Source of the DNA: Prevotella sp.
GTDB taxonomy: Bacteria; Bacteroidota; Bacteroidia; Bacteroidales; Dysgonomonadaceae
Reading direction: 5' to 3'
DNA: 64,000 nucleotides
Assembly (NCBI GenBank): GCA_031285625.1
Contig: JAITVV010000095.1
Location: 259,282-323,281 of the forward strand
Below the pieces are notes generated by a model. It was not told the DNA's origin, did no database searches, and was given only the letters and a program-made list of their open reading frames with translations. Every line of letters begins with the position of its first letter. Position 1 is the stretch's first letter. The position numbers and the translations under genes are program-made. This document shows positions 7,313 through 63,621 of this stretch, one piece after another.

Positions 7313-7591
7313 ATGAATACATTAATGATAATAATAATCCTGCTTGCATCTGTAGTTGCATCCCTGTATTGGGGAATAGTACTGTCTGTAAAACTCCCTT
7401 TGTGGGACAGGCGGTTCAATCGCAAACCATTCAATTGCAGGCCTTGCCTGACATTTCATCTGGTTGCGACATCCGGCAGCTTGTTTGCTCTATTGTTACT
7501 ATCGGTAGAACTATTTCTGGCAGGTATTGCAACAGCTTTCACCGTATTTTTCATTGTAAGATATATTGATAATAAAAAAGTAATAAAATGA
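7313..7591 (+). CDS. Phage-like membrane protein with KPFNCxxC motif
   Basis: About 3 TM with RKPFNCRPCLTF; first of three coupled genes ending in terS. Confidence 0.6.
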   Translation: MNTLMIIIILLASVVASLYWGIVLSVKLPLWDRRFNRKPFNCRPCLTFHLVATSGSLFALLLLSVELFLAGIATAFTVFFIVRYIDNKKVIK

Positions 7592-7872
7592 GCAACGCAT
7601 TAGTAACAGAAGTAAAAAAACTCATTCGGGAGGTAGACAAAACACATCGTTATTCAATGAGCCGTATTTATGGGCTGTACAACGAAGTATTTGATAAGGA
7701 TGAAGAACCACAGTCGTGTGCCAGCTGCCTGATACGCAAGGTAAAAGAGCTCAGGCTGTGGCTGGAAAACAACAGCGGACAGGAAACTGCCGAAGATATT
7801 GAAACTTCAGCCCAACCGAAAGAAAAGAAAGCACAGAAAACAAAAAAGAGTCGTACCGGAAAAGAACAATAA
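7588..7872 (+). CDS. Phage-like hypothetical protein (YNEVF...SCASC)
   Basis: Overlaps both neighbours; CxxC motif of the type I recall upstream of terminase genes in Bacteroidetes phages. Confidence 0.6.
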   Translation: MSNALVTEVKKLIREVDKTHRYSMSRIYGLYNEVFDKDEEPQSCASCLIRKVKELRLWLENNSGQETAEDIETSAQPKEKKAQKTKKSRTGKEQ

Positions 7873-8357
7873 TGGCACGTGGACAAAAAAAATGTTATAC
7901 CAACAGGGGCTGTGACGGCGAGGAACTGATATATCAGCAGCCTAAAGACTTGCTGTCACAGGCTTACAAATATTTTGACTGGTGCAACGACAATCCCTGG
8001 CATAAGCAGGAACTGATAAAGTCGGGTACCAGAGCCGGGGAACTTATTGGGATACCGATTGTCCGGCCATATACACTGGAGGGACTGTGTGTATTCTGCG
8101 GGATAAGTACCGGTACCTTCTGCCATTATGAAGAAAGAGAAGATTTTGTTGCAGTGACAACACATCTGCAGGAGATCATCCGTCAAAACCAGATTGAGGG
8201 AGAATGTATAGGAGCATACAATACTGCAGTTATAAACAAAATACAGGGATTAGCTGACAAACAGGAAGTAAATATGCCTACAGGACTGACCATAAATGTG
8301 ATTTCGCCTGAGGCCAAAGACAATCTGGAAGCACTTAAAGAATCCCTGTCCAAGTAA
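7872..8357 (+). CDS. Terminase small subunit (P22 gp3-like DNA-packaging protein)
   Basis: AYKYFDWCNDNPW, RPYTLEGLCVFCGIS, GAYN...GLADKQEV resemble the GP3_package family. Confidence 0.82.
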   Translation: MARGQKKCYTNRGCDGEELIYQQPKDLLSQAYKYFDWCNDNPWHKQELIKSGTRAGELIGIPIVRPYTLEGLCVFCGISTGTFCHYEEREDFVAVTTHLQEIIRQNQIEGECIGAYNTAVINKIQGLADKQEVNMPTGLTINVISPEAKDNLEALKESLSK

Positions 8358-17511: not shown

Positions 17512-18117
17512 TCAGACTAATTCTTCCCTACGTTTCTTAAACTCTTTGTTGGCGCGTACACCTTTCTTTATCTTGGAGATAGCACGTTGGATATTATGTT
17601 CCCTTATTCCGGTAATGTCGGCCAGAGATGCATAGTTTATAGCAGGTTTCAGGTTGATATACATCTTGAAGAGCTCGAAGTCGCGAATACTGTAATTCTT
17701 GTACACATAATCGAAGATATCCTTCTCCAACTTTTGCTGTTTGTCTTGCAGCTCGGCAAAATACTGGGTATCGGTATCTGCTTTATCATAGTGGGGTAGC
17801 AGCTCGCAGTAACGGTTTTGCTTAATACCGTTTGCCATCAGGTTAGTAAAATAGGAACGTACAAAATAATACCTGTAATTCTCCACATTGGTTCCCGTAT
17901 AAAGGATATTTTCGTACATTTTGAGATAACTCTCGCTGAAAACATCGCAATCGAAATAATTGCGCACTGTCAGATACTGTATCACTTCCTTGTTGTTTTC
18001 TACAAACCAAACGTTAAATGCTTCCGCCTTTTCGGCATAAACAACGTCCTGTACTCCCTCTTTTTTCTTAAAGTATTTCTTACCCTTGTTACTTCTGTTA
18101 GTATTGAATAGCAGCAT
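17512..18117 (-). CDS. Phage-type sigma-70/ECF-like transcription factor
   Basis: Region-2-like DVFSESYLKMYE..YFVRSYFTNL; region-4 HTH YASLADITGIREHNIQRAISKIKK; last gene of the replication operon. Confidence 0.65.
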   Translation of the reverse strand: MLLFNTNRSNKGKKYFKKKEGVQDVVYAEKAEAFNVWFVENNKEVIQYLTVRNYFDCDVFSESYLKMYENILYTGTNVENYRYYFVRSYFTNLMANGIKQNRYCELLPHYDKADTDTQYFAELQDKQQKLEKDIFDYVYKNYSIRDFELFKMYINLKPAINYASLADITGIREHNIQRAISKIKKGVRANKEFKKRREELV

Positions 18118-18382: not shown

Positions 18383-18970
18383 TTACTTTCTCAGGCTTTG
18401 CCCTCTGAATTTGATACGTCTTGTAGTAGATACTATACGTTCCATTACCCGCTGCCCGTATCGTCCGGCTATCTCATCTCCCCGCAGGTTGGTAGAAATA
18501 ATGATGAGTTTTCCGTACTTCTCGGCTGCGTCCATTACTTCGGCAAAGGCTTGCCGCTTGTTGCCATAATTGACAGAAATATCTTCCGTGCCAATATCAT
18601 CGAGGCTGATCACGTGTTTTTTAAGTACATCGTCTATGTATTTATTCATCTCCTGCACATCGTACACCGACACCACTTTGCGCGTATATTTCAGTATGAT
18701 GGCAGGCAATATATAACGGGTGAGCAGGCTTTTGCCACGTCCGCAGTCACCATACAGAAACAGCCCCCGCCCCTCGTTGTCGGCCAGCCATTCGGCCACC
18801 TGATTGTATTCGGGCTGCCACAGCAAATCGACCCCCTCATAGGCAAGAAAATATTTGAAACAACTTTCGAGTACAGCCATCGGATTTTGCAGCTGTATGG
18901 CTACGCGCCGTGTTGGCAATTGCATACCATGCACACGCATCTGTTCGTATATTTGTTCAAAATCGTTCAT
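18383..18970 (-). CDS. DnaC/IstB-like AAA+ helicase loader (phage replication)
   Basis: Walker A GDCGRGKS, Walker B LDDIG, IISTNL, RYGQRVMER; coupled to the initiator. Confidence 0.85.
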   Translation of the reverse strand: MNDFEQIYEQMRVHGMQLPTRRVAIQLQNPMAVLESCFKYFLAYEGVDLLWQPEYNQVAEWLADNEGRGLFLYGDCGRGKSLLTRYILPAIILKYTRKVVSVYDVQEMNKYIDDVLKKHVISLDDIGTEDISVNYGNKRQAFAEVMDAAEKYGKLIIISTNLRGDEIAGRYGQRVMERIVSTTRRIKFRGQSLRK

Positions 18971-19508
18971 CTGTCGTTGGTTTTATATGTACTTGCGTAT
19001 CCCTGTTCTCCCATGTGCGGACTGCTGCCCGCCAGTCTTTCATCTTGTTTTTCCCTATCATCCAGTCTTTTGCTGTATAGAAGTTTATAAACTGATGCGG
19101 ATCAACTCCATTATTCCTTTTCCGGCAATAGCTTTCCACTTCCTGAGGCTGAGGAGGCAAGAAGATTATTTTCTCTTTACGGCTCGTTTTTTTAGTTTTG
19201 CTTTCGCTCTCTGTTATACTTACCTTATCACAGAATAAAAGTGTGTATACCGGCGATTTCTTTTTACGCTGCCCTGCCTCAAAAGAGATTAAATTTTTTT
19301 GCTGCAACTTGCTTCTTGCCTCTATCAGTGTTTTTTCTGAAATACTGATAGAAGAAGTGATCAGTCCGTTAGAACATTCGAAAGGATTTTCCCAGTTGCG
19401 GATATTCGACTCCTGCATCAAAAAGTAGTACAAGTCCGCCTCACTGGACGTAAACCTCATCCTGCGCCGTGCTTGCCAAAACTGATTTATAAGCTCTATG
19501 TAATTCAT
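18957..19508 (-). CDS. Phage replication initiator / replisome organiser
   Basis: N-terminal winged-helix-like MNYIELINQFW..EADLYYFL; C-terminal PP...EV..YC...FINFY...W..GKNKMKDWRAAVRTWE; short linker. Confidence 0.8.
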   Translation of the reverse strand: MNYIELINQFWQARRRMRFTSSEADLYYFLMQESNIRNWENPFECSNGLITSSISISEKTLIEARSKLQQKNLISFEAGQRKKKSPVYTLLFCDKVSITESESKTKKTSRKEKIIFLPPQPQEVESYCRKRNNGVDPHQFINFYTAKDWMIGKNKMKDWRAAVRTWENRDTQVHIKPTTDERF

Positions 19509-19843
19509 ATATATGTGAATCTGTCTTCCAGTATATCATAAGCCTGTTCGCCCGCCTCTTTTCCGTTACGGTTGTATTCTTCTATAATCGGCTTCAGGCG
19601 CGAGGTCAACACGGCAGTATCTTCATACAGCAAGTCCCATTCATCATCCAGTACTTCAGACGCTTTCACGTTTACGGTATCCATATAGGCATCGAATGAT
19701 ACACAAACTCGTATATCGCCTATAACATCGTCAAAATCTGTCACATCCATCTCATCAGAATTGTATAAATGACTCGTAATGGATTTTATTATGCTACTCA
19801 TTTGTGTTTCATTGCAATAGCAATCAATTTTTAACGCTCCCAT
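19505..19843 (-). CDS. Hypothetical acidic protein, first gene of the replication operon
   Basis: 112 aa; overlaps the initiator start; divergent from the repressor; no HTH. Confidence 0.65.
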   Translation of the reverse strand: MGALKIDCYCNETQMSSIIKSITSHLYNSDEMDVTDFDDVIGDIRVCVSFDAYMDTVNVKASEVLDDEWDLLYEDTAVLTSRLKPIIEEYNRNGKEAGEQAYDILEDRFTYI

Positions 19844-20103: not shown

Positions 20104-20104
20104 C

Positions 20105-39321: not shown

Positions 39322-39379
39322 AGTGATATAGTTATATATGATTGTATTATCTTTACATTTTAAAAAATTATTAAAATCC

Positions 39380-40180: not shown

Positions 40181-40375
40181 ATGAAATATTTTGTCGATGT
40201 TCAAGATGAAGATGCACTTATATCCAACGGGGTGTATAATGTTGTAATCTGTAAGAAATTCCTATTTTTAAACATCCGGATTCGCCATATTGGTTCTTTT
40301 AATGAAAGTAACCTTTCAGAGAAAAATGATCTAATCAACAAAGCTAACCGGTATTGTTCTATTTACAACTTATAA
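40181..40375 (+). CDS. Small hypothetical protein
   Basis: Short low-GC ORF convergent with the tail fibre gene. Confidence 0.35.
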   Translation: MKYFVDVQDEDALISNGVYNVVICKKFLFLNIRIRHIGSFNESNLSEKNDLINKANRYCSIYNL

Positions 40376-43378: not shown

Positions 43379-43407
43379 AGTTTTTATTATTAATTTGTTA
43401 ATAGAGT

Positions 43408-43511
43408 AATTAGCATATTTGAGAATTAGCATATTAGCAAATGGACGCAAAGCAAAAAAACATTGACAATGTCACCATTTGCTAATTTTCGAATTTGCTA
43501 ATCTGCTAATT
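43408..43511. repeat. AATTAGC-unit inverted repeat array
   Basis: TAATTAGCATATTTGAGAATTAGCATATTAGCAAAT...ATTTGCTAATTTTCGAATTTGCTAATCTGCTAATT. Confidence 0.7.
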
Positions 43512-48859: not shown

Positions 48860-50980
48860 TTACACCCCTACCCAGCCATCTACGCTGACCATACTTTCCT
48901 GTACTTTGGCGATATCCGTTACTGCTACTTTTGGCTCGATACGGATAGACTGAATAGCTTTTATCAAGTTCTCATTATCAATATTAGCCACTGGTTCTAC
49001 AGCTGGCAATTGTCCTCCATCGGCAAACATACGCTTAAAGGAGGGTTCTGTACTTTGCAACGAACGTGAAAAATAGGTATTGAGATCACTTGGAGACAGT
49101 TCGCGCCGTTGCTCATTGATATACTTCACCAATCCCAGATTCTTATTTGTAGACACACGGTTGACCACATATTCACCGCCTTCTACTTCCATATTGGTAC
49201 CTTCTATACGCATACCTCCTTGTGCATGGCGTTTGCCTCGGAGTAGTCCTCCGTCTTCAAATTTGGCTAGTTGTGCCGTCATTATCTTTAACTGCATAGC
49301 ACCGTTTAAAGCTACTAATGCAGCCAATGGAGGACCAAGTATCGGGCCTTTTCCCCATGCTGTAGCAACACCTTTGGCAATCTCCTTTGTCGCTGTAGCA
49401 ATATCAAGTACAAGTTGAGCTTTTGCCTTTATTTTTTCCAGTTTTTCGAGTTTTTCTTTTCTTTTTTGTGCTTTTTCTGCTATTTCCGCATCTTTTTTAG
49501 CTTTTTCTTCTTCAAGTTTCTTCTTGTCGTCCTCTATGCGCATCTGTTCTAATAAAACACTGCGATTGCTCTCTGTTATTCTATTGTTAGCATTTTCTAT
49601 TGTTGATTGTTTATTTTCTACAATTTCCTCTTCTGCTTTAGCAAGTTTGTCTAACTCTTCTATCCTTTCATATGCCGCCTTAATTTCTTCTTCCGATGCA
49701 TCAGCTACCGGCACAACATCACTTTTTTCAGAGCTATCTTTACTTTCAGAATCAGTATCTGTTGGAATTTCGGCAGTTAAACTTTGCAGAGTATTCGTAG
49801 ATTCTTCAGGTTTATTAACATCCTCTTTTTTCTCATCAGCATTTGGATTCTTTACCTTGAAAGAATCTTCTATTTTTTTTATATCGTTTTTATATTTTTC
49901 TGCCTTTATTTTTGCTTCTGCCTGTTCTTTTTCTGCTTTTTCTTTTTCTTTTTCATATTTTGAGGCTTCAGCTCTTACTTCTTCCAGTTCCTTATCCAGC
50001 TTTTCTAATTTCTTTTTATACTTTTCGTCATTGGCAGCTTTTTCTTTTGTTTCTAAATCTGTGATGCCTTTTTCCAGTAGCGTTACACTTTCTGTTATGC
50101 CTTTTGCAAAATCATGGAATCCATAAGTACTATCTTTTAGAAACTTATCAAAACCACCCTCATTATCCTTGACAAAGTTTTCAAGTTTTGTTTTTATTTC
50201 ACCATGTTGTGTATTCCAAATATCCAGATAAGATTTGTTTGATTCTTTAATAGTTTTATCGGTTTCTAGTATTTTTTTTTGCAATTCTTCCAGTGCTTTT
50301 TCTTTGTCCTTCTGTTTCTGCTTAAATTGTTCACTATCTTCGGCATACTGAGAGATTACACTGCTATAATATAACTTGGTTTGTACACCTGCCACCTCCA
50401 GTTCCTCTTTATATTTTTTAAGCACGGCTACACGTTCTTCCGCCCTTTCTTTGTATGCTTTGAGGTTAAGGATACCAATCTTCTTTTCTTTTTCAGCTTC
50501 GTCTTCTGTTTTTTCAGTCGATTCTTTAAGTGATTTTGCAACTAATTCTTTATTTTTCGCTAATTGCTGTTCCAGCCTTGTTGTTTGTACTTCACTTTTT
50601 GCCGTTATTTTGTCTATGTAGGCTTCCATCACCGTAGATGCTTCTATTGCTTTTATTTTAATGGAAGATAAGCCGGAATCGGCAGATTTTCCCATACTCT
50701 CAGCCAGTTTTTCTCCGGCTTCTATATTTTTTTCTATAGCCTGCCCCGCGTGTGTGCTCAGTTCGGTGATTATTGCTTCTATCTTCGCCATTTGCAAAGC
50801 GATGTATTCTATTACATCTTTTAGCTCATTTTTGTAAGTGTCTGCTACATCTTTTGCTGTAACGGACATACCTTTTGCTTTTACATCTACCTTCTCTAAA
50901 CTGTTACTTAACTTTTCTACATTTTCAGTACTTTTTTCTACTCCATTAACGAGTAGTGTAAATTCTTTTTTATCTGCCAT
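48860..50980 (-). CDS. Tail tape measure protein
   Basis: Long K/E coiled coil, hydrophobic GPILGPPLAALVA segment, C-terminal KFEDGGLL.G..HAQGG...EVEGGEYVVNR and FADGG motifs. Confidence 0.75.
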   Translation of the reverse strand: MADKKEFTLLVNGVEKSTENVEKLSNSLEKVDVKAKGMSVTAKDVADTYKNELKDVIEYIALQMAKIEAIITELSTHAGQAIEKNIEAGEKLAESMGKSADSGLSSIKIKAIEASTVMEAYIDKITAKSEVQTTRLEQQLAKNKELVAKSLKESTEKTEDEAEKEKKIGILNLKAYKERAEERVAVLKKYKEELEVAGVQTKLYYSSVISQYAEDSEQFKQKQKDKEKALEELQKKILETDKTIKESNKSYLDIWNTQHGEIKTKLENFVKDNEGGFDKFLKDSTYGFHDFAKGITESVTLLEKGITDLETKEKAANDEKYKKKLEKLDKELEEVRAEASKYEKEKEKAEKEQAEAKIKAEKYKNDIKKIEDSFKVKNPNADEKKEDVNKPEESTNTLQSLTAEIPTDTDSESKDSSEKSDVVPVADASEEEIKAAYERIEELDKLAKAEEEIVENKQSTIENANNRITESNRSVLLEQMRIEDDKKKLEEEKAKKDAEIAEKAQKRKEKLEKLEKIKAKAQLVLDIATATKEIAKGVATAWGKGPILGPPLAALVALNGAMQLKIMTAQLAKFEDGGLLRGKRHAQGGMRIEGTNMEVEGGEYVVNRVSTNKNLGLVKYINEQRRELSPSDLNTYFSRSLQSTEPSFKRMFADGGQLPAVEPVANIDNENLIKAIQSIRIEPKVAVTDIAKVQESMVSVDGWVGV

Positions 50981-51703: not shown

Positions 51704-52249
51704 TCAGCAGCAGCCTTTCTTCTTTTTCTGGAAATAAAATCCGCTATCGAAATCTTTCTGTGCCGATCCTTCATTTATCACCTCGTTGCAACAGGCATTC
51801 TGAGGACGCCACAACGGATAATTTGCGCGGCAATGGCACATAAAGTCTATCAACTGGCTCACCAGTATCCCGGCATCATCTTTTAACCATTGGCGAAGCT
51901 GTGCAAGGTCTTTGATATCAATGCCTTTGCTATTATCACTTTCGCGGATGGTGATACCCTTGTTTACGATGGTGGCCCAGTGGAACGGCAATGCCTGATA
52001 GACCGCGTAGAACGACAGGGCGGGAGCCGTGCGGAGTATCAGGTCGCTGTTTTCGGGGGTAAGGCTGTTAGCTGTGATCTGCTGCTTGAGTTCGGTCATC
52101 AGCGGTTCGCCCAGTATGGGTTCTATATGCAGTTCCTGTGCGATACAGATATAAGGCACAAACTCGGTGATGTCGGTGTTGGAGGTCACAGGAGAATACT
52201 GCTTAAAGAGCTTCTCTGTGATAAGTGGTATTTGTATATACTCGGTCAT
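51704..52249 (-). CDS. Head-tail adaptor/connector, putative
   Basis: Follows the portal; PYI..AQE..I..ILG..L..EL, YPLW motifs; start set at MTEYIQ. Confidence 0.6.
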   Translation of the reverse strand: MTEYIQIPLITEKLFKQYSPVTSNTDITEFVPYICIAQELHIEPILGEPLMTELKQQITANSLTPENSDLILRTAPALSFYAVYQALPFHWATIVNKGITIRESDNSKGIDIKDLAQLRQWLKDDAGILVSQLIDFMCHCRANYPLWRPQNACCNEVINEGSAQKDFDSGFYFQKKKKGCC

Positions 52250-52333
52250 AATACTTAATTTGAAAATATGAAAATTAGCAAATATGAAAATGATTATTGT
52301 CACTTTGTGCCAATTTGCTAATATGCTAATTTA

Positions 52334-53425
52334 TTAATTGGCTAATTGTTCTACTATCTCCAGATCGTCTATTTCCAGCTGCTTATAGCCGTTATTGATC
52401 GTAAAAATACTGAGTGTGTCTATGATCTTGCGGCGAAGCTGATGTATCACTGTCTGGTTGTAAAGCACAAAAGAATTGATAATCTCATTGGCATTTCCCG
52501 ACAGGTTGCCCGATCCCGACAGCCCTGCCAGCGTAGGCGAAGTAAGGCGGTGTGCCGATATGATTTTCTGGAAGATGATTTCGTCCACATTATTGTACAG
52601 ATCGGCATTGTTGCTAGCTGTGTACGATGTCACCACAGGCTTTATTTCCTGGCTTTCACCCCAAAGCACTACAATGCTGTTTGCGCCGTTTGTTCCGGCA
52701 TAGCTTTGCTCTATATCCTTTTGGAACTGCTCTTTCTGTTCCTCGCTCGGGTTGCTCGGCATAGTAATAATGGTGGAAGGCACAAAGCCATTGTTGATAG
52801 AGTTGCGGTAAAATTTACCCAAAAGTCCGTCTGCCTCTATATAGTTGAATGCAGAATAATACTGAGGCACAGGATAATAATCGAGACTCGGCGCATAGTC
52901 TTTATAATAAAACAAGTATGGCACACCCTTTTGCATCTCTTCCGCGCCATAGGCTTTTATCTCTGCCGGCGCATACTTTCCGGTAGTTCGTTTCCAGTCG
53001 TTGGACAGGTAGAAGCTGAGGTATACGCCATATTCGTTCACCTGCCCTACCCTGATCTTGCTAAAGTCGGTATGGTAAACGCTTATACTCTTGCCGTTTT
53101 CGTTCAGTATCACCTGAAAGCAATATCCGCCAAAGGTGACATAGTCGCGCGCTACTTTTTCTATCAGGCTGTCCCAGTCGTCGACAGGATTGGGCTGCCC
53201 GTAGTATTGCCCGTCTTTTACTCCTGCACCGCAAATATAGGTCACTTTGTTTTCTATTACCGCCTTGTTGATAGCCGACTCATTGTTGAGTTCGATAATA
53301 CGCTGAGGGAGGAGGTTGTCGCGGTCATAGTTTATCCACCCTTTGGTACTCTTGGTAAATGTAGGATACGTCCTGATGGTATCCGACAGTTTGATTACTG
53401 TGTATTTCTTTTCTTCTATACCCAT
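52334..53425 (-). CDS. Portal protein
   Basis: W..Y..DN..P, DYVTFGG, YYPVPQY....YIEAD, NSINNGFVP, GTNGAN, IISAHRLTSP.L.G portal motifs. Confidence 0.82.
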   Translation of the reverse strand: MGIEEKKYTVIKLSDTIRTYPTFTKSTKGWINYDRDNLLPQRIIELNNESAINKAVIENKVTYICGAGVKDGQYYGQPNPVDDWDSLIEKVARDYVTFGGYCFQVILNENGKSISVYHTDFSKIRVGQVNEYGVYLSFYLSNDWKRTTGKYAPAEIKAYGAEEMQKGVPYLFYYKDYAPSLDYYPVPQYYSAFNYIEADGLLGKFYRNSINNGFVPSTIITMPSNPSEEQKEQFQKDIEQSYAGTNGANSIVVLWGESQEIKPVVTSYTASNNADLYNNVDEIIFQKIISAHRLTSPTLAGLSGSGNLSGNANEIINSFVLYNQTVIHQLRRKIIDTLSIFTINNGYKQLEIDDLEIVEQLAN

Positions 53426-54335: not shown

Positions 54336-54360
54336 AAGAGAGTAAAAGATTGCGTCAAAA

Positions 54361-54397
54361 TCTCCCTTTTTATCATCTTCCCACAAAATTATCTATA
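54361..54397 (+). promoter_or_regulatory. Candidate late promoter upstream of the tail chaperone
   Basis: TCTCCCTTTTTATCAT-N13-TATCTA. Confidence 0.55.
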
Positions 54398-54418
54398 AGT
54401 AACAAATTTAATTTACTT

Positions 54419-55111
54419 ATGATAAAAGTTGAGTTTAACGACCTGAAACTGGAAATCCCCGAAAGCTGGGGAGAGATAAAACTGTCTACCTACGAGCGGT
54501 ATTATATGCAAAGCCCCAAGACAAAGATGGAGCAGGTAGCTTTTATTGCCGGGCTGTGCAATATCGATATAGATATCCTCTTGGAATCACCCGCACAAGT
54601 ATTCAATACCATAGCAGGCATCACCGATTTTGTATTCGACAATGAGCTGCCACCATCCAACAAAGTGAAAATAGGCAGCACAGAATATTTCATCTCCTTT
54701 GCCGACAAATTAACACTTGGCGAATGGGTAGATGCAGAAAATGTGATCAGTAGCGAAAGTGAATATAAGTTATCGGAACTGCTGGCTATCCTTTGCCGCC
54801 CCATTGGCGAGAAGTATAATCCCGATCTGGCAACCGGAAGAGCTGAAATGTTCAGAAACCTTCGTTGTGACAAAGCGCTGCCGTTGATCAGTTTTTTTTT
54901 ATTCAAAAAGAAAAGATCAGAAGAGATTTTGAACCACTATTCGACGGTAATGGCTCAGGCCGACCAGTTTCTAAAGGATACAAAAGCTTTTGCAGCAAAT
55001 GGGGATGGTATAAAACTATTGCCGATCTGGCAGAGGATAAGATATACTTATTTGATACGATCACTGGAAAAACAGTTGGCGAAGTGTTCGGATTTCTCCT
55101 CTACAAGATAG
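54419..55111 (+). CDS. Tail assembly chaperone (gpG-like, 0-frame product)
   Basis: IPESWGEIKL, LTLGEWVDAE, LAILCRP motifs; T9A slippery run at FFL. Confidence 0.7.
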   Translation: MIKVEFNDLKLEIPESWGEIKLSTYERYYMQSPKTKMEQVAFIAGLCNIDIDILLESPAQVFNTIAGITDFVFDNELPPSNKVKIGSTEYFISFADKLTLGEWVDAENVISSESEYKLSELLAILCRPIGEKYNPDLATGRAEMFRNLRCDKALPLISFFLFKKKRSEEILNHYSTVMAQADQFLKDTKAFAANGDGIKLLPIWQRIRYTYLIRSLEKQLAKCSDFSSTR

Positions 55112-56782: not shown

Positions 56783-57331
56783 ATGATAGACAGTATTATA
56801 AACATTTTCAGGCAACAGGCCCGTGAGCATAAGCTAATCAGGGCTTTTTATTATGACCGTAATTACGAACTGGGAAGCGGTAAAGATATGTACCCGTTGT
56901 TTTGGCTCGAAGACCCTGTACGGGGATACAATAAAGACAATACGTTCCTCAACTCGGTCGATTTCTCCATTCTTTTCCTTCCTTCTACCGAAGAGTCGGT
57001 GAGCCATTTGCAAAACCTTGCTTTTTCTACAGGACTGAATATAATAGAACGGATAAAAAAGCACCAGAATACTTTAGGCATCAGCATTTTGCCCGATTGG
57101 GATTATATGACTGTAAGGGATTATTACGACGACAATGCTGCCGGATGCCGCTTCTCGGTAACTTTCACACAGATGAATATGCAAAACCTCTGCCTGATAG
57201 ATGAACAGTTTGATCCGGAGAAGGAATTTGATAAATACAGTCCGATAAAGGACTTTGACATCACTCCGGCGAATAGCTGCGAGATTTTTACAAATAAGTT
57301 CCCTGACTTTGATCTAAAAATAAGAAAATAA
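56783..57331 (+). CDS. Tail terminator/completion-like protein, putative
   Basis: First gene of the neck/tail operon; YPLFWLE and D..AG..F motifs; called from context. Confidence 0.5.
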   Translation: MIDSIINIFRQQAREHKLIRAFYYDRNYELGSGKDMYPLFWLEDPVRGYNKDNTFLNSVDFSILFLPSTEESVSHLQNLAFSTGLNIIERIKKHQNTLGISILPDWDYMTVRDYYDDNAAGCRFSVTFTQMNMQNLCLIDEQFDPEKEFDKYSPIKDFDITPANSCEIFTNKFPDFDLKIRK

Positions 57332-57343
57332 TCTTACCCTCTT

Positions 57344-57426
57344 TGTCATCCTGAGAGTAGCGAAGGATCTCTTTGCTTTTCTCCATGACAAATAAGTCGA
57401 GATGTTTCACTCTGTTCAACATGACA
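57344..57426. repeat. REP-like palindromic element
   Basis: TGTCATCCTGAG...GAGATGTTTCACTCTGTTCAACATGACA. Confidence 0.85.
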
Positions 57427-57436
57427 AAAGAAAACA

Positions 57437-57910
57437 ATGAAATATAAAACAATGAACACTGCCACACAAAAGGTAATAAACGAAATAGCAGCCGACATTC
57501 TCTCACTTGCAAAAGCCGTTTTTAAAGACGACAAAGTGAGCCGCAATACGAAAACTGGCAAGAATGCATTAAAGGAAAGGACAGAAGATATTAAACTCGA
57601 AGTAGATACAAATAATACTGTTATCCGCCTGTTATTCGATGATTATCTCACCTATCTGGAGAATGACCGCCCTCCGCGCAAAGGTAAGCTTCCACCACTG
57701 GACGAACTCCGCGATTGGGCACTGTCTAAGAATATACCGACCGACAATGCCACACTCTTCCTTATTGCCCGTGCCATTTGGCGCGATGGTCACGAAGGAC
57801 GCCCGATTTTGGCAACCATTGAGGAACAGATAGAAAAGAGATTTGAAACCGAGTGGTACGACAAACTATTTGAAGCAACAATTGACGAACTAAATAAATA
57901 TTTTAACTAA
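57437..57910 (+). CDS. Neck / virion morphogenesis protein (HK97 gp10-like), putative
   Basis: Y..YLE..R.P..K.PP...L.DW...K, FLIARAI...G..GRP motifs. Confidence 0.6.
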   Translation: MKYKTMNTATQKVINEIAADILSLAKAVFKDDKVSRNTKTGKNALKERTEDIKLEVDTNNTVIRLLFDDYLTYLENDRPPRKGKLPPLDELRDWALSKNIPTDNATLFLIARAIWRDGHEGRPILATIEEQIEKRFETEWYDKLFEATIDELNKYFN

Positions 57911-59589
57911 TGGGATATTTTATAAAAGGACTGGAAATAGCAAAAGAAACGGTTACCCCTGCCAAAGTATCTTTAGCGGGGAATCCTAATTACATCGAAT
58001 TTTCGAGCAATGCTACCGGAGAAAATAGGCTGGTAGAGATGACATTGGAGGTTATCGGTAATGGGTTTGATGAGAACCTCGATAATTTCACAAAGTTCGC
58101 TATTGTAGAGAAAAACTCCGGTGAGCAACATGTATTTGAAGCAACAACAGATATAAGCAGCATAGGAGGAGGAACATATTATACCGATCCGGCATGGAGC
58201 TTCAATAAAATAGCGGAAGCCTTAAAGAATGTGCTTCAGAGTAATTCCTTTATTGGAAATAATTTCAATATTTTATTTCCGCCAATTACCGACGATGAAG
58301 GGAATATAACCTACGGCAGAATTATTAAGCTAATATCGAAGGGAAGCGGTAGCGGTTATGCTTTCTATTTTAACCCCGAAGATGAAAAGTTGTACACATA
58401 TTTCCTAAAAAAAGCAAGTCCATCCGTAACGGTCAGCAACGATTCCATAGGTCTGGGCTACAATCCTGTAGAGATACAACTCGAACTGTATAAAGACACA
58501 GGCATATTCTTAGGTGAAGATGACCGGCCTGTAGGCAGCAATATGGGTACCCTGGCGATGCCCCTTACCAAAGCCTATTCATACACACCTATCTGGTTCA
58601 ATCTTAATATACTGGAAGCGAACAACATACCTGTCGATTTTCTGAATGCCACAGATTGGGTAGATACGGGAACGATCAATAATTTCCGTTTTGCCGCCAA
58701 GCGGTTAATATCGGACAAAGACTATTATGACAATTCACTGTTCTACTATTCCCCTGTACTGTACACAGTTGCAGGAAACAGGCGCACATTGGAAGAAAAC
58801 GATTTGTCCGATTATGTATTCGATACACAGGAAAGATTGAAAAGTCCGGAAGAGATAAAGAAAGTAAAACCACTAACCAATCAGCCTGACTTCTTCCATA
58901 TAAAAGGGCAAACACAATACTTCAATTTCATCTTATCCGATGCTGAACATAGCATAAATGTCAGTAAAGAATATCAACTTGGCATTGTTTTCAGAATCTA
59001 TTCTCAGTCGGGAAGATTTATTGCCGATAAATACGACCACTTTAAGGCGAGGAGAAATTTCAATGAGGTCAATACTATCAGGTTAAACCTCGATAAAGCA
59101 ATTGAAGGATACGAAAACGCCGGAAAGGTAGAAATCTATCTGGCTTACCGTTATGGTAGCGAAGCACCGGTTGAAGTGAGCAAGCCTCTGAGATTCAATA
59201 TTCTTCCCGAATGCCTGCACAAGGTAAAAGATTTTGCTTTTCTCAATAGCCTTGGCGGATGGAGCAGCTTTAATTTTCCGGGTACGGAACAATCAGAGTT
59301 TAAGGCAGAAGCAAATACGATATTTAAAACGCAGACACCACATTATTCGGTAAGTAGCGAGATCGAATCGGTTTATAATAAAAATACCTCCGAGCAATTC
59401 ACCGTACAGACCATGCCCGTAACAATGGAGGTTTGCAACTGGCTCAAAGAGCTTAGTGCATCCAAAGCAGTATACGAACTATCCACAAAGAGGTATGTAA
59501 TAGTGGATGAAATGAATATCAAACCCAATTCGAAAGATGAACTTTTCAGGGTGGATATAAAGTATCGGTATTCGGACGCTTATAATTGA
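57910..59589 (+). CDS. Tail structural protein (distal-tail-like), putative
   Basis: Coupled to the upstream gene; C-terminal FLNSLGGWSSFNF and WLKEL..S..VY motifs. Confidence 0.6.
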   Translation: MGYFIKGLEIAKETVTPAKVSLAGNPNYIEFSSNATGENRLVEMTLEVIGNGFDENLDNFTKFAIVEKNSGEQHVFEATTDISSIGGGTYYTDPAWSFNKIAEALKNVLQSNSFIGNNFNILFPPITDDEGNITYGRIIKLISKGSGSGYAFYFNPEDEKLYTYFLKKASPSVTVSNDSIGLGYNPVEIQLELYKDTGIFLGEDDRPVGSNMGTLAMPLTKAYSYTPIWFNLNILEANNIPVDFLNATDWVDTGTINNFRFAAKRLISDKDYYDNSLFYYSPVLYTVAGNRRTLEENDLSDYVFDTQERLKSPEEIKKVKPLTNQPDFFHIKGQTQYFNFILSDAEHSINVSKEYQLGIVFRIYSQSGRFIADKYDHFKARRNFNEVNTIRLNLDKAIEGYENAGKVEIYLAYRYGSEAPVEVSKPLRFNILPECLHKVKDFAFLNSLGGWSSFNFPGTEQSEFKAEANTIFKTQTPHYSVSSEIESVYNKNTSEQFTVQTMPVTMEVCNWLKELSASKAVYELSTKRYVIVDEMNIKPNSKDELFRVDIKYRYSDAYN

Positions 59590-59597: not shown

Positions 59598-59753
59598 TGT
59601 CATACTGAGTGCAACGAAAGATCTCTTGTCTTTTTCATGATAAAATGGGTCGGGATCCTTCCCTTCGATCAGGATAACAAAGAAAATGGAAAGAAGATAA
59701 ATATCATCTTTTGTCATGTTGACGATAGGAAGCATCTCGACTCATTTCTCCAT
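59598..59753. repeat. Two REP-like elements (one full, one partial)
   Basis: 59598-59679 and 59712 to about 59753, directly upstream of terL. Confidence 0.75.
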
Positions 59754-59782
59754 CAAATACTTGTAACGCGTAACTAAAAAAT

Positions 59783-60955
59783 ATGAAAGCAACCACCGTC
59801 TTCGAAAAAAACTTATCAGCATACGGCAAAGGATACAGATATATTGTAAACAAGGGTTCTACACGCTCATCAAAGACGTATAGCCAATTGCAGTTGCTGT
59901 ATCTGATTGCCGAGTTGTCCAATCAGCCAAAAGTCATCTCTGTTGTCTCCGAATCGATGCCCCACCTCAAAAAAGGGTGTATCAGGGATTTTAAGGAAAT
60001 TCTGCAAAGCGAGGGTAAATGGATAAATAGCTGTTGGCATGCTACGGACAAGATCTACAGGGTAAACAAGTCGATGATAGAATTTTTCTCTGCCGACAAT
60101 CCCGGTAAAGTACATGGTCCCAGCAGGGACATATTGTATGTAAATGAGTGTATTAATATCGATTACGAGACCTATCGCCAGTTGGCAATCCGTACCACAG
60201 AGACCATCTTTTTGGACTGCAACCCCTGTTTTGAATTCTGGCTCGATGAAAAGGTCCTCACTCAGCCGGAAGCAATACTGATCCATTCCACTTATAAGGA
60301 CAATGAATACCTTACCGAGGCACAAGTAAGGGAAATAGAATCGAACCGAGGCGACAAAGACTGGTGGCTGGTGTACGGCGAAGGGCTCACAGGCTCGCTC
60401 AAAGGAGTGATTATCAAAGATTGGGACATCGTAGAGAAAATGCCTCAGGTATATAAAAACAGGTGGATAGGCATCGACTTCGGTTTTACCAACGACCCTA
60501 CGGCAATTGTAGACATTCGTTTGGCCGGGGGAGAGCTTTGGATCGATGAACTCCTATATAGTAAAGGGTATGATAACCTGATGATTGCCGAAACGCTGAG
60601 GACTTGCGGAATTCCTAAAGATACTGCGATAATAGCCGATAGCGCCGAACCCAAAAGTATAAAAGAAATCTCGGCCTTTGGATGGAAAGTCGAACCCGCG
60701 CAGAAGGGAAAAGACAGCATCAATACCGGAATCGCAGTACTCAACCGCTATAAGAAGCATATAACCCGGCGAAGCACAAATATCATTAACGAATACCGTA
60801 ACTATCGCTGGCAAACGGATATCAATGGTGAGCCAAACAATAAACCAACCGACCGCTACAATCACTCGATAGACGCCCAACGCTATATCTGCCTCAACAA
60901 ACTGATGGAACGTAACAGCCCGTTGAGTTATGGGATAGCCAGAGGGAGGAAATAA
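59783..60955 (+). CDS. Terminase large subunit (PBSX family)
   Basis: Walker A GSTRSSKT, Walker B LYVNE, DCNP, nuclease GIDFGFTNDP, ADSAEP, NHSIDAQRY. Confidence 0.92.
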   Translation: MKATTVFEKNLSAYGKGYRYIVNKGSTRSSKTYSQLQLLYLIAELSNQPKVISVVSESMPHLKKGCIRDFKEILQSEGKWINSCWHATDKIYRVNKSMIEFFSADNPGKVHGPSRDILYVNECINIDYETYRQLAIRTTETIFLDCNPCFEFWLDEKVLTQPEAILIHSTYKDNEYLTEAQVREIESNRGDKDWWLVYGEGLTGSLKGVIIKDWDIVEKMPQVYKNRWIGIDFGFTNDPTAIVDIRLAGGELWIDELLYSKGYDNLMIAETLRTCGIPKDTAIIADSAEPKSIKEISAFGWKVEPAQKGKDSINTGIAVLNRYKKHITRRSTNIINEYRNYRWQTDINGEPNNKPTDRYNHSIDAQRYICLNKLMERNSPLSYGIARGRK

Positions 60956-60972
60956 TTAGCTAATTAAAAAAT

Positions 60973-63621
60973 ATGAACATAGAATTATACATCAAAAACC
61001 GCCTTTGCGATATCACCAGCCCCGAAAGTCTGGGTATACAGCTCAAACGCCAGTTTATCAATCCTGCCGAACTAAGCATTAAGGATGCACAGAAATCGTA
61101 TGAGATAACGCTTCCTGCCACCCCTGTCAATAATGAAATATTCAGCCATGTAAATGTGGAAGAAGTGCAGGGAAAATTCCGTATCTATGAGGATGCACGC
61201 CTGTACGTGAATGGGATCCTTATCCTGGATGGTAAGTTCCGTCTGAGTGAAATCACACAGGATAGCTACAAAGGTAATCTGGGCGTGCCTGCCCCACTCA
61301 CGGTAAAGGATATTTTCGGGGAAACGATGATGAATCAGGCAGGGAAATGGGAGATTAATTTTGAAGGGGCAAAGACTGTAACGGAGTTTAATACAGACAC
61401 GTACGACAAGGCAAAATACGGAGATATTGCCCCTTGCATTTTTCCATTTGTTCTTTATGGGTTACTTAATAAGCCTTCTACACCTGGAGCTAATATAAAA
61501 AAAGATGTTTATGATGAGTCGGTACGTTTCAGATTTAATGACATTCCCCCATCAATTAACTGTCTGAGTATGTTAAAGATGATATTTAATAATGCCAATT
61601 ACACATTGACAGGTAATGCATTTAATGATGAACGTTTAAAACAGTTGTATGTCAGCTATATGAATCCTAACGACTTTGCTATGAAATGGAATACCGGTAA
61701 AATGGAGCTGTTAGGAAACTGGACAAATTATAATTCGGAAAGAAGGCAGGTAGAAAAGAGGAGTTATAGGGATGGCACAGAAGAAAATAGGATACATGCT
61801 ATCGATTTATTTAATGCTGATAATTCCGAGATTACTCCTGTTTTCAACATGGGGGGCAATATATCTACATCGCAAAATAACGTAACTACTATTACTATAC
61901 CCTATAGCGGTTTATACAAAATTATATTCAAGGCAAATGTAAGTTTTAGTAGAGGAAGTGATACAGTCTATTATATCAATGGCAATAGCGGGCCATTTGT
62001 AATGGAACCCGATAGTCCCGATAATAACAATCATCTTCATTCATCTCGATTTGAACTGAAACTGATGCGTAATTTTGATGGTAATCTGGAAGATATAAGG
62101 TTTGATAATATCTTTTTTAATGATAATCAGGAAGAAAACTCAGAAGATATAGGTACAGTCTATCCGGAACCGGGAGAAACACACTTTATAGACCCAAAAC
62201 AAAATTCTGATATATTATGTGGTTTTGCCTGGGGAAAAAAGGCAGGGCTGGGTAGTTATATAAATCCTACTGAAGAGGAAGGAAAGTATATCTATAATAA
62301 TCCTATGGCAATAAGTGGGGGAATATCGTGGGATCAAGATACAAAGTATAGTGCACAGTCTGCATCCGTTAATAGCGGCTATCTGGAAAAAACAGCAGAT
62401 AACAGATGGAAAAAAACAGCCAGATTTAAAGTAGAAATAGATAATGCTCCTGAATCAAAAACAAACATTGATGATAACAAAATAGATGCTGATGGTAGGA
62501 TAGCTCAGATAGTATGGCTGGAAGCAGGACAAAAGCTTTCCCTGATTGAAATATCAGACATGGGGCTGCGTCTGGATATGAATGACAGACAGTATGGATG
62601 GCTTAGACACACAGTTGACTTTAATTTATCTGTTGAACCTTTCAGAGAAGACGTAGATTGGCTCACAATGATGCCTGATGGTGCAAGTGACCCTACAAAA
62701 CCAACTATGAAGTGGAACGATAATTCAACCTTTGAGCAAGGGAAAATCAACTTGGTCGATTTTATGCCGAAAGATGTAAAAATAAACGAATGGATAGATA
62801 ATTTTTGTAAAGCATTTAATCTAAGTATGATACATACAGGAGGGACAAACTTTGAACTGAATGTAAAAAATAATGAAGTGGCGACAAATCTTTCTTATCT
62901 GATCGATTTAGATAAAAAAGCCAGTATAAAACAACGGCGGAATGAATCGTTGAAACTACCCTATGTATATGAACTGGGTTTTACTATCGATACAGCTGAA
63001 GAGGGATATCACGAAACAATGACTAACAAAAAACCGGGAGATGAATCTGAAAAGATCGTAAACTCAGGAGATGATGGTGGTGGAAAATTCTACACAGGCA
63101 GTTACGAAACAACCAAGTTAACTCACACTTCAAACTTTTCGTATAATTGGACAAAAGATATAGAAGTTGAAGATTCGGATAAGCCTCTTGAAATTCCCGT
63201 AATTTCAGAACATGAGATATGGGAGAAAAAGCCTGATTATGATGAAATGAAAGATAAAATGTATTATGATAAGCCTCAGCGTTTCTGGTACAAGAACGGA
63301 ATATTTGATACCATAATGAATAATGAAAGCAACGTTACTTTAGCCCTTACGGGAAACGAATATAAGAATAATGAAAAGCAGATTGTACTCAACTACAAAA
63401 ACAAGCCGGATACAATAGCTAGAAACTATTTTTTATTACTTGCTGACAACAATAATAATTACACAATAGTAGAATGCTACCTTACTGCCGAAGAATATCA
63501 CAATTTAGGTAAATCACTTGTAAAACTGAATGGGGATTTGTACCACATAGCTGAAGTGGATGGATACGACCCTTTAGGTAAAAATAAATGTACTCTAAAA
63601 TTAATAAGACGGATTATATAA
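60973..63621 (+). CDS. Large tail/baseplate hub protein, putative
   Basis: N-terminal S..ITLPAT..NN.IF.H motif; C-terminal LNG..Y.I....GYDP......LKLI; co-transcribed with terL. Confidence 0.65.
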   Translation: MNIELYIKNRLCDITSPESLGIQLKRQFINPAELSIKDAQKSYEITLPATPVNNEIFSHVNVEEVQGKFRIYEDARLYVNGILILDGKFRLSEITQDSYKGNLGVPAPLTVKDIFGETMMNQAGKWEINFEGAKTVTEFNTDTYDKAKYGDIAPCIFPFVLYGLLNKPSTPGANIKKDVYDESVRFRFNDIPPSINCLSMLKMIFNNANYTLTGNAFNDERLKQLYVSYMNPNDFAMKWNTGKMELLGNWTNYNSERRQVEKRSYRDGTEENRIHAIDLFNADNSEITPVFNMGGNISTSQNNVTTITIPYSGLYKIIFKANVSFSRGSDTVYYINGNSGPFVMEPDSPDNNNHLHSSRFELKLMRNFDGNLEDIRFDNIFFNDNQEENSEDIGTVYPEPGETHFIDPKQNSDILCGFAWGKKAGLGSYINPTEEEGKYIYNNPMAISGGISWDQDTKYSAQSASVNSGYLEKTADNRWKKTARFKVEIDNAPESKTNIDDNKIDADGRIAQIVWLEAGQKLSLIEISDMGLRLDMNDRQYGWLRHTVDFNLSVEPFREDVDWLTMMPDGASDPTKPTMKWNDNSTFEQGKINLVDFMPKDVKINEWIDNFCKAFNLSMIHTGGTNFELNVKNNEVATNLSYLIDLDKKASIKQRRNESLKLPYVYELGFTIDTAEEGYHETMTNKKPGDESEKIVNSGDDGGGKFYTGSYETTKLTHTSNFSYNWTKDIEVEDSDKPLEIPVISEHEIWEKKPDYDEMKDKMYYDKPQRFWYKNGIFDTIMNNESNVTLALTGNEYKNNEKQIVLNYKNKPDTIARNYFLLLADNNNNYTIVECYLTAEEYHNLGKSLVKLNGDLYHIAEVDGYDPLGKNKCTLKLIRRII

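Follow-up and report, generated by a model that had tools for sequence, protein, structure and literature searches.

A phage gene set kept across a bacterial genus

The locus described here raises the question of why genes for phage heads, tails, DNA packaging and lysis lie scattered among housekeeping genes on the chromosome of a Dysgonomonas species, and what has kept them there. The stretch analysed (the window) comprises the final 64 kb of its contig, which measures 323 kb and belongs to a draft genome of 4.84 Mb (96 contigs, 3.85% contamination), and the window's end coincides with the contig end, directly beyond an 882-aa gene at 60973-63621. About 21 of its phage-type genes, together called the element, are inherited across nearly the whole genus and its sister genus, mostly as single intact copies. 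They comprise the terS trio (the small terminase subunit gene and two neighbours) and the sigma-like, DnaC-like plus partner, repressor, lysis, tube-fold, capsid, protease, tape-measure-like, portal, large terminase (terL) and tail-tip/fibre genes. These phage-derived particle genes reside in the chromosome and, with the exception of the capsid gene, are inherited vertically with the host. Sequence comparison gives good support to the view that the set is domesticated, host-maintained and not excisable as a unit. The probable explanation of the window as a whole is an anciently domesticated siphovirus-like prophage derivative (a "viriform") of the gene transfer agent (GTA) or PBSX type, which the host would keep as co-operating modules and not as a mobile genome.

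Protein searches were carried out on one genome per species and covered 34 other species of the genus (24 drawn for TerL). The portal protein was found in 31 of the 34 (75-88% identity), in 29 of them at full length (76-88%). TerL was detected in 22 of the 24 species by protein search (71-78% identity), and DNA matches in 10 further species brought the count to 32 of 34. Capsid matches were present in 26 species, where 23 sequences were full length (71-88% identity), one was split over two contigs and two were remnants, while a TerS homologue was found in 19 of the 34 (28-60% identity). A 20-kb DNA query (42103-62102) had matches in all 34 species, of which G018 (98% complete) gave a single weak match. 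Copies were mostly single per genome. Among 150 further genomes of the family that were scanned, the portal occurred in all 10 species of a second (sister) genus (65-73% identity), in one of two species of a third (70%), in both species of a fourth (50% and 27%) and in one of five species of a fifth (29%), and no portal was found in the 97 genomes of the remaining 16 genera. RpoB identity to the window's genome is 91-92% in the second to fourth genera and 87-97% within the genus. Sixteen genomes, each representing another family of the order, yielded no TerL. Compared with cultured Bacteroides phages of 33-37 kb the portal showed 21-24% identity, and the 882-aa protein had no match among cultured phages.

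Gene content and selection

The window holds 127 open reading frames (ORFs) of at least 80 aa, of which 68 were run against Pfam, 30 against PHROGs and 10 against NCBIfam. The phage-type genes form five groups: A (7286-8357), B (17512-20842), C (37743-45769), D (48860-55111) and E (56783-63621). They are listed below with amino acid identities to relatives, where "regions" means the element regions of six relatives compared gene by gene, and with dN/dS values calculated by the Nei-Gojobori method (NG86) for close pairs with unsaturated dS (0.1-0.5).

7286..7591, plus strand: small membrane protein, first of the terS trio, with three hydrophobic stretches read from the sequence; 45-54% identity, beside terS in 6/6 regions
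7588..7872, plus strand: small basic protein of the terS trio; 52-70% identity, adjoining terS in 6/6 regions
7872..8357, plus strand: small terminase subunit, terS, of P22 gp3 type (Pfam GP3_package 7.2e-18; phrog_606 6.7e-28); dN/dS 0.06-0.10
17512..18117, minus strand: sigma-70/ECF-like protein, candidate late-gene activator (NCBIfam sigma70-ECF over the full length, weak, E 0.004, below cut-off); 41-71% identity in 6/6 regions; dN/dS 0.01-0.03
18383..18970, minus strand: DnaC/DnaI/IstB-like P-loop ATPase of helicase-loader type (NCBIfam PRK08116 3.9e-15 and DnaI 2e-06, both below cut-offs; Pfam nSTAND3/RNA_helicase); 57-62% identity in 6/6 regions; dN/dS 0.08-0.11
18957..19843, minus strand: two conserved genes (183 and 112 aa) upstream of the ATPase gene; 35-67% identity in 6/6 regions; dN/dS 0.07-0.21
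20105..20842, plus strand: repressor-like protein with helix-turn-helix and S24-peptidase parts, of cI/LexA build (Pfam HTH_3 4e-05; Peptidase_S24 0.0045, below cut-off); 84% identity in the three closest relatives, no match in the remaining three regions; dN/dS 0.02-0.03
37743..38168, minus strand: unimolecular-spanin-like protein, with lipoprotein signal and C-terminal membrane anchor read from the sequence; 57-82% identity in 6/6 regions; dN/dS 0.14-0.20
38313..38834, minus strand: endolysin with GH108 and peptidoglycan-binding domains (Pfam Glyco_hydro_108 1e-22, PG_binding_3 1.7e-13; phrog_315 3e-37); 69-70% identity, in the three closest relatives only
38827..39408, minus strand: holin-like membrane protein (Pfam Phage_holin_4_1 6.7e-04, below cut-off; phrog_15037 2.4e-14)
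40370..42136, minus strand: tail fibre/receptor-binding protein with SGNH esterase domain (Pfam Lipase_GDSL_2 2.5e-14; phrog_5240 tail fibre 3.8e-15)
42103..42678, minus strand: paralogue of the tube-fold protein (its orthologue matched the 42842 protein at 22.5% identity, E 4e-05); 51-59% identity in 6/6 regions; dN/dS of the tube paralogues 0.03-0.06
42842..43450, minus strand: tail-tube-fold protein of 202 aa, true start probably near 43381 (matches of its AlphaFold2, AF2, model); 72-80% identity in relatives
43514..44461, minus strand: major capsid protein (phrog_11320 3.5e-63; phrog_1623 virion structural protein); dN/dS 0.01-0.11
44606..45769, minus strand: XkdF-type head protease with C-terminal coiled coil (Pfam Peptidase_S78_2 1.6e-12; phrog_24921 2.9e-76); 59-75% identity in relatives; dN/dS 0.03-0.06
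48860..50980, minus strand: probable tape measure protein of 706 aa, read from the sequence as a long K/E-rich coiled coil followed by a hydrophobic Gly-rich stretch and a conserved C-terminus; dN/dS 0.19
51704..52303, minus strand: DUF6712 protein adjoining the portal (Pfam DUF6712 1.5e-31); 70-77% identity in relatives
52334..53425, minus strand: portal protein (Pfam Phage_portal 3e-10; phrog_11226 3.4e-63); dN/dS 0.00-0.02
54350..55111, plus strand: conserved virion-module gene, 253 aa, first gene after the integrase in a related prophage (C86, see below); 54-74% identity in 6/6 regions; dN/dS 0.08-0.3
56783..59589, plus strand: run of three conserved genes preceding terL (182, 157 and 559 aa), whose position suggests a tail or neck module; order kept in relatives and in the C86 prophage; dN/dS 0.07-0.14
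59783..60955, plus strand: large terminase subunit, terL, of PBSX/Terminase_3 type (Pfam Terminase_3C 1.1e-14, Terminase_3 8.8e-10; phrog_2 1.5e-33); dN/dS 0.03-0.05
60973..63621, plus strand: 882-aa virion protein, probable tail-tip/receptor-binding protein; 40-53% identity in relatives

The repressor-like gene is transcribed divergently from the rest of group B, and a homologue of the sigma-like protein lies at the end of the C86 prophage. The protease is probably a protease-scaffold fusion, in which the coiled coil would act as scaffold, and a head-tail joining role is our guess for the DUF6712 protein, whose gene keeps its place beside the portal gene both in the C86 prophage and on distantly related viral contigs. 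No Pfam or PHROGs family matched the first two proteins of the terS trio or the 182-, 157- and 559-aa proteins, and PDB sequence profiles of the latter three gave nothing or chance-level rows (four for the 559-aa family). The 183- and 112-aa proteins likewise had no Pfam or NCBIfam match; the former may resemble a replication organiser.

Across close pairs, dN/dS of the conserved element genes was 0.00-0.21, to be compared with 0.01-0.03 for rpoB as a reference. Spurious ORFs overlapping the genes served as an internal control and gave values of 0.08-4.6, most of them at least 1.0. The dS of element genes resembled that of rpoB in the same pair (e.g., 0.24 vs 0.14 and 0.48 vs 0.45). The element genes are under strong purifying selection. 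The earlier note on this DNA had proposed that absence or decay in relatives, or dN/dS near 1, would speak against a maintained particle system; the genes turned out to be present and intact in nearly all relatives, with ratios far below 1. Non-element orthologues in 80-kb regions of three relatives had a median identity of 76-78% to the window's genome; the portal and capsid (up to 88%) lie above this median and TerL lies at it.

Inheritance was examined by comparing gene trees with the host. Portal and RpoB distances were correlated (Mantel r 0.73, 0 of 2000 permutations as high), and the correlation was weaker for the capsid (r 0.49). The portal tree had 8 of 18 splits in common with the RpoB tree, where the maximum in 5000 label shuffles was 4. 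In a constrained approximately unbiased (AU) test, only rpoB nucleotide clades with SH-like support of at least 0.95 (FastTree) were forced on the gene trees, with the following results.

Portal: 26 taxa, 12 clades, p 0.16, not rejected
terL: 16 taxa, 6 clades, p 0.165, not rejected
Protease: 21 taxa, 9 clades, p 0.09, not rejected
Capsid: 21 taxa, 9 clades, p 1e-07, rejected
Next tube gene: 12 taxa, 6 clades, p 0.04, marginally rejected

When the fully resolved RpoB protein tree had served for comparison in a prior AU test, p was 0.06 (borderline) for the portal and 1e-37 for the capsid; the constrained test was relied on. The congruence with the species tree that had been put forward as a check was thus borne out for the portal, terL and protease, which are compatible with the rpoB clades, and failed for the capsid.

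Dispersal of the element among host genes

Host genes sit between groups A and B and between groups B and C. Besides a glycosyltransferase and a YhcH gene they include the following, recognised by Pfam unless noted.

14218-15027: LpxH-like (NCBIfam 1.8e-21, below cut-off)
15039-15353: FeS_assembly_P (SUF-type)
22378-23337: ferrochelatase (hemH)
23439-24413: mannose-6-phosphate isomerase (manA)
29552-30118: EF-P (efp)
32145-34298: M3 peptidase (dcp)
35677-37683: GlgB-like

The layout described in the earlier note was confirmed on each point: a distance of about 52 kb between terS and terL (51.9 kb as measured, 7872-8357 vs 59783-60955), core genes that separate terS, the regulation and replication genes (17512-20842) and the cluster for head, tail and lysis (37743-63621) from one another, in agreement with the profile matches, and intact ORFs of the recognisable virion genes. 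Opposite-strand genes that are not conserved in relatives interrupt the structural cluster at 39338-40375, 46198-48823, 51056-51544, 53579-54169 and 55218-56720.

The dispersed state was compared with the arrangement in relatives. In the three closest ones (G019, G022 and G041) groups A-E occupy a single stretch of about 43 kb, which lacks the window's housekeeping genes and carries variable, non-conserved ORFs between the groups. Since the modules stand together there, they belong together, which speaks against a derivation from unrelated prophages. The tightest form is a 61-kb metagenome contig from IMG/VR, with two divergent operons in 16 kb: one contains the 253-aa, 182-aa, 157-aa and 559-aa genes, terL and the 882-aa gene, the other the portal gene, the DUF6712 gene, the tape-measure C-terminus, the protease gene, the capsid gene and the two tube paralogues. 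The set extends over 511 kb in G003, a closed genome (terL at 4,539,011, portal at 4,985,912, capsid at 5,016,906 and terS at 5,049,430), with the 882-aa gene beside terL at 4.539 Mb and the 559-aa gene at 4.965 Mb; host genes lie between the portal and DUF6712 genes, and their orthologues (65-87% identity) are on other contigs of the window's genome. The closed genome G060 of the sister genus has the set over 183 kb (portal at 2,795,665, capsid at 2,829,998, terL at 2,979,195), and in two further sister-genus genomes the terL-capsid gaps are 106-170 kb. In G023, terS adjoins terL. The loci therefore span 56 kb in the window, 511 kb in G003, 183 kb in G060 and about 43 kb in the closest relatives, and dispersal among host genes is the rule across lineages, not a quirk of the window's assembly.

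The junction between glgB and the phage genes is spanned by an 8150-nt contig (from the probable source run, with zero differences) and by a 5015-nt contig assembled from a run of another study (36882-39337). As the junction is bridged in an independent assembly, it is not an assembly artefact, and the suspicion of misassembly raised beforehand is dispelled at this point; the check covers the glgB/phage junction, one of four in the window (the others lie near 8.4, 17.5 and 21.2 kb).

Integrase, composition and a related prophage

No integrase or recombinase family matched any of the 68 Pfam-scanned ORFs of the window, and attachment-site repeats were not systematically searched; no tRNA gene was found in the window. 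The search was extended to G019, G041, G022, G003 and G060 with PF00589 (tyrosine recombinase) and PF00239 (resolvase). The genomes had 13-29 and 0-1 copies of these, respectively, and none was in or beside the set in the five genomes, the nearest being 17 kb away (G041). That no integrase was visible in the window had been reported before, and the same is now seen around the set in the relatives. Two G019 ORFs were tried as integrases by PDB profile, of which one had no match and the other a single chance-level row. One of the two, a 424-aa ORF beside the repressor gene (L030:14293-15567), was putAbiC-like according to ESM Atlas; this abortive infection gene is not present in the window.

A temperate prophage is expected to have an integrase and attachment sites, to form one contiguous genome and to have a patchy spread and, in many cases, foreign composition. 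The element has no recognised integrase, is split, is near-universal in two genera and is host-like in composition. A capsid-forming phage-inducible chromosomal island (cf-PICI), a small integrase-bearing island with a borrowed tail, does not describe it either: there is no integrase, the tube-fold, tape-measure-like and fibre genes are its own, and it is not compact in the window. The G+C content at third codon positions (GC3) was 0.434 for the element genes, 0.434 for neighbouring housekeeping genes and 0.166 for the C86 prophage of the same assembly. Overall GC is even along the window (0.34-0.43), and contig GC is unimodal. Codon usage relative to the genome mean was uninformative (relative synonymous codon usage distance 2.34 for housekeeping neighbours vs 2.52 for the element, 0.81 for random sets), and the compositional argument uses only the contrast with the C86 prophage.

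The C86 prophage (111.9-144.6 kb; loci L136 and L137) is a related and apparently complete prophage. It is a tight same-strand array of about 35 kb that opens with a 618-aa serine integrase gene and has a GC content of 0.29. Homologues of 13 element genes occur in it at 23-53% identity, namely those of 54350, 56783, 57437 and 57910, the 882-aa gene, the tape-measure C-terminus, the protease, capsid, both tube-fold, portal, DUF6712 and sigma-like genes; for terL and terS of the element, no homologue was detected there. Unlike the element, it is contiguous, has the serine integrase and the low GC3, and contains no palindromic host repeats. By sequence, the closest true relative of the element is a Bacteroidota prophage with a serine integrase, as represented by C86.

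Virion type and adsorption genes

The AF2 model of the 42842 protein had a pLDDT of 58.5. Most of its 50 best VIA matches were tail-tube, terminator or Hcp-fold chains at Z 5-7.9, including Mu (Z 7.9), the SPP1 tube (Z 6.1) and the RcGTA virion 6tba (Z 6.1). As each Z is middling, the assignment of a tail-tube fold to this model rests on the make-up of the match list, and the protein is best described as a putative tube protein. The 706-aa protein matched only coiled-coil families (SMC, Rad50). Its C-terminal 200 aa show 65% identity in relatives and are kept in a 1145-aa protein of the C86 prophage, and its build makes it a probable tape measure. For the 882-aa protein the AF2 model was poor (pLDDT 50.7). 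All its PDB rows had E >0.001, with weak likeness to TNF/C1q-like domains and a phage receptor-binding protein, so its fold is left unnamed, and the PDB sequence profile of its family gave nothing beyond chance level. It had 71 BFVD matches at E<=1e-3, the best 50 of the 71 all from phages or uncultured viruses and without a named function, and an ESM Atlas score of 0.98 to viral clusters. It is probably a tail-tip or receptor-binding protein. Taken together, the tube fold, the tape-measure build, the 882-aa protein and the fibre suggest a siphovirus-like particle with a long non-contractile tail. No sheath family was found among the 68 ORFs run against Pfam or the 30 run against PHROGs, and several conserved proteins have no assigned fold.

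The adsorption genes are exceptionally variable. The fibre gene shows 47% identity between species whose neighbouring genes are 96-97% identical, and only the first 57 aa of the fibre protein are conserved in the sister genus, while the 882-aa gene is 58% identical between two species with 99% identity in terL. Contigs from two other runs carry 2641 unrelated letters in place of the fibre cassette (39337-41827), and a third run did not cover the cassette, which indicates that the receptor-binding gene is swapped at strain level. Such cassette swapping of the fibre and 882-aa genes suggests a working adsorption organ, since selection on adsorption parts would be sensible only if particles meet cells. 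Runs X2-X4 had no cover at 39.7-41.7 kb, and X3 also none at 49.0-50.3 kb, which reflects strain differences or gaps only. Two RNA-library runs gave contigs over most genes; no claim of expression is made from them, because contigs cannot show transcription and the RNA libraries possibly contain DNA.

Interpretation of the element

A working scheme for the domesticated particle system can be proposed. A signal would lead to loss of the cI/LexA-like repressor, after which the element's own sigma-like factor would make a fraction of the cells express the modules together. Tailed particles would be assembled from the co-expressed modules, and the P22-type headful terminase would fill the heads from the chromosome, either at random, like GTAs and PBSX, or processively, starting at a pac site in the vicinity of terS, like lateral-transducing phages. 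The particles would be released by holin, endolysin and spanin, and the fast-swapping fibre and tail-tip genes would decide which neighbours are hit. We infer from the gene content that the set may still make tailed, DNA-filled particles carrying chromosomal DNA, the point on which a GTA claim hinges. Because the loci extend over 56 kb (183-511 kb in closed genomes), no single headful would be expected to hold the whole set, and the particles would move host DNA and not themselves. A more specific version is put forward tentatively. The element may be the first GTA-like system of Bacteroidota, a chromosome-locked, non-excising siphovirus derivative of Dysgonomonas and its sister genera, governed by a repressor/sigma switch, perhaps amplifying DNA in place with the DnaC-like genes and filling heads processively from a chromosomal pac site; it would form a built-in lateral-transduction engine, and its own capsid, fibre and tail-tip alleles would be part of the DNA passed between species.

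Several observations weigh against a working, host-owned particle system. In G005, a deletion fuses capsid codon ~21 to residue 135 of the DnaC-like gene, and the capsid, tube, lysis and replication-type genes are gone; compared with close kin at dS 0.3, its portal, protease and terL genes nevertheless have dN/dS values of 0.01-0.07. The capsid is reduced to 90 aa in G002. In G048 neither the genome search nor inspection of 40 kb of the contig revealed it, and the product of the 882-aa gene is shortened to 301 aa. Protein search gave no capsid match in G004, G007, G009 and G015, possibly owing to assembly gaps in some of them, and none in G001 and G011 (51% and 74% complete). Nearly the whole set is lost in G018. 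These losses indicate that the system is dispensable. The small terminase is weakly conserved (19 of 34 species) and was not found in four of five sister-genera genomes. Among its homologues in G017, G042, G003, G005 and G008, two species have an internal TAG and three have frames of 130-133 aa, and decay or shortening of the gene in this clade is possible. The species clades are strongly rejected by the capsid tree, so capsid alleles cross species lines and inheritance is not purely vertical. The repressor and the DnaC-like loader with its partners are commoner in prophages than in known GTAs. GTAs typically lack a replication/lysogeny module (this is not a formal criterion), whereas a DnaC/DnaI-like ATPase with partners is conserved here and a cI/LexA-like repressor is present in the closest relatives. 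The layout in these relatives is compact, one stretch of this kind being catalogued in IMG/VR as a viral contig of 39.7 kb; the set might behave as a phage there, and compact forms might be packaged whole. The tail annotations are based on models of low confidence (pLDDT of 50.7 and 58.5) and on Z scores that are middling, and the genome is a draft with the contig number and contamination given above. Thus, of the domesticated particle system proposed in the earlier note, the host-maintained, non-excisable character is well supported by presence, dN/dS, trees and the lack of an integrase, while capsid loss or truncation, the conflicting capsid tree and the retained repressor and replication-type genes are a poor fit to a simple GTA.

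Among the alternatives, a PBSX-like killer particle would be a host-kept defective prophage whose tailed particles kill competing strains and whose head DNA is incidental. The XkdF-type protease, the PBSX-family large terminase and the pairing of a repressor with a sigma-like factor, as in the Xre and Xpf control of PBSX, agree with it; fast fibre and tail-tip swapping is expected of strain-targeted weapons, and the genus-wide conservation under purifying selection is also compatible. However, the capsid, portal and both terminase subunits, which are needless for pure killing, are among the best conserved parts, PBSX is one contiguous cluster whereas the element is split, and the exchange of capsid alleles between species hints at DNA delivery, although it is no proof. 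We regard this explanation as unlikely.

The element could instead be an unusual phage whose compact form (about 43 kb) replicates in place, is packaged without excision and re-enters by homologous recombination, the split forms being dead ends. The compact arrangement in the three closest relatives and the two operons of the 61-kb metagenome contig would be explained in this way, as would the selection on the DnaC-like and partner genes, the headful-type terS, the IMG/VR listing of such a stretch as viral and the movement of capsid, fibre and tail-tip alleles between species. Nevertheless, no integrase was found in five genomes, copies are mostly single with dS equal to host dS, the portal, terL and protease trees follow the species clades, and the composition is host-like and unlike that of the C86 prophage. 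Moreover, split versions are under equally strong selection (G003 and the sister genus), and the explanation is judged quite improbable.

Decaying, functionless prophage remnants, conserved in appearance only through the closeness of the species, could account for capsid loss, terS decay, loss of the whole set in some species and the unrelated genes inserted between modules. But the set is older than the split of two genera (RpoB 91-92% identity), the dN/dS values of 0.00-0.21 hold over dS up to 0.5 and beyond with all ~21 frames intact, and most overlapping non-genes of the same DNA have a ratio of at least 1, which makes decay very hard to accept. The least credible alternative is a bin or chimeric contig joining prophage pieces to housekeeping genes, for which the 96 contigs, the contamination and the palindromic repeats that break contigs in intergenic gaps could be cited, but glgB and the lysis genes are joined on a contig from another study (36882-39337), two closed genomes (G003 and G060) have their modules dispersed in the same manner, and contig GC is unimodal.

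Comparison with known systems

The domesticated particle system that we favour can be compared with several known systems. With RcGTA of Alphaproteobacteria (Rhodobacter, Caulobacter) the element shares a host-owned head-tail-packaging-lysis set, vertical inheritance, purifying selection, several loci, the lack of an integrase and variable adsorption parts, and its tube-fold model matched an RcGTA virion chain (6tba, Z 6.1). In contrast, the phylum differs, the origin is independent and gene-by-gene homology was not shown; the element has its own repressor, sigma-like factor and DnaC-like genes, whereas RcGTA depends on host regulators, among which are CtrA and GafA. PBSX of Bacillus resembles the element in its XkdF-family protease, PBSX-family terL, repressor and sigma-like late activator (Xre and Xpf in PBSX), lysis genes and conservation in related species. 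It is a contiguous cluster with a contractile tail, while the element has no recognised sheath gene, has host genes between its modules and belongs to another phylum and envelope type. Contiguity of the PBSX kind was absent from the window, G003 and G060 and nearly attained in G019, G022 and G041, and the sigma-like match is weak. BaGTA (Bartonella) and VSH-1 (Brachyspira) are likewise host-retained phage derivatives packaging host DNA; the element has no sequence relation to them. In BaGTA, DNA near a run-off replication origin is amplified; the element has no recognised origin or amplified region, but its conserved DnaC-like genes could have a similar role. Lateral transduction by late-excising pac prophages (Staphylococcus aureus, Salmonella P22) is similar in the headful P22 gp3-type small terminase and in a packaging start that, for the element, would be chromosomal. 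Lateral-transducing phages are, however, complete, excising and infectious and have integrases, while the element has none and is not contiguous.

Very few host-owned DNA-carrying particles are known. According to the accessible part of a 2026 article (PMC12946183), they occur in Alphaproteobacteria, Desulfovibrio, Brachyspira, Methanococcus, Bacillus (PBSX, which packages 13.4-kb chromosomal pieces) and now Faecalibacterium; that part names no example from Bacteroidota, while it reports lateral transduction in Bacteroidales and counts them among the groups with the highest gut gene-exchange rates. No description of such a system in Bacteroidota was found in the open-access literature, supplements and subscription journals being outside the search, which agrees with the earlier statement that no characterised Bacteroidales example was known. 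The element is a strong candidate for encoding a type of DNA-carrying, host-owned particle so far undescribed in the phylum. Since Dysgonomonas is frequent in insect guts and some of its species have been cultured, the prediction is directly testable, and the natural series from compact to split, capsid-less and fully lost sets could reveal the way in which a phage turns into a host organ and the order in which its parts are kept or lost.

Repeats and neighbouring genes

Many intergenic gaps contain palindromic repeats, and contigs break there. One of them, a ~95-nt imperfect palindrome (R1), occurs at about 14 loci in 30270-63841 (e.g., 35528-35616, 44498-44596, 51551-51632, 57332-57435 and 59589-59760). 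Its profile gave 27 window hits (both strands) of 229 genome-wide and none inside the C86 prophage, and the same element in G019, G022 and G041 contained 27, 0 and 2 loci, respectively, despite near-identical coding sequences. R1 was considered as a common promoter or operator of the modules and was ruled out in this role, since it is found throughout the genome and the element has no copy of it in G022 and only two in G041. It has the appearance of a repeat of the MITE/REP kind (miniature inverted-repeat transposable element/repetitive extragenic palindrome) that has been spreading recently with a preference for the phage cluster.

Hairpins built of an 8-nt periodic unit (TTAGCAAAT / ATTTGCTAA) were found at 42678-42717, 43399-43520 and 52248-52356. 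They follow the capsid stop directly, precede both tube genes and separate the portal and DUF6712 genes. At the same junctions other species have hairpins of equal build and different sequence, and these structures may be terminators or RNA-stability elements.

The opposite-strand ORF of 500 aa at 55218-56720, between the 253-aa and 182-aa genes, had no Pfam or PHROGs match and no counterpart in the regions of the six relatives, and is inserted cargo. Three tandem 66-nt units, 80-88% alike, lie at 48629-48826, at the 3' end of a non-conserved gene with a Bflower_3 domain (48206-48823). Upstream of the set, the window carries an LrgA/LrgB pair (murein-hydrolase regulator family) and a gene for a 429-aa protein with a retropepsin-like aspartyl protease domain (20-1062 and 4262-5551), which showed no linkage to the phage set in relatives.

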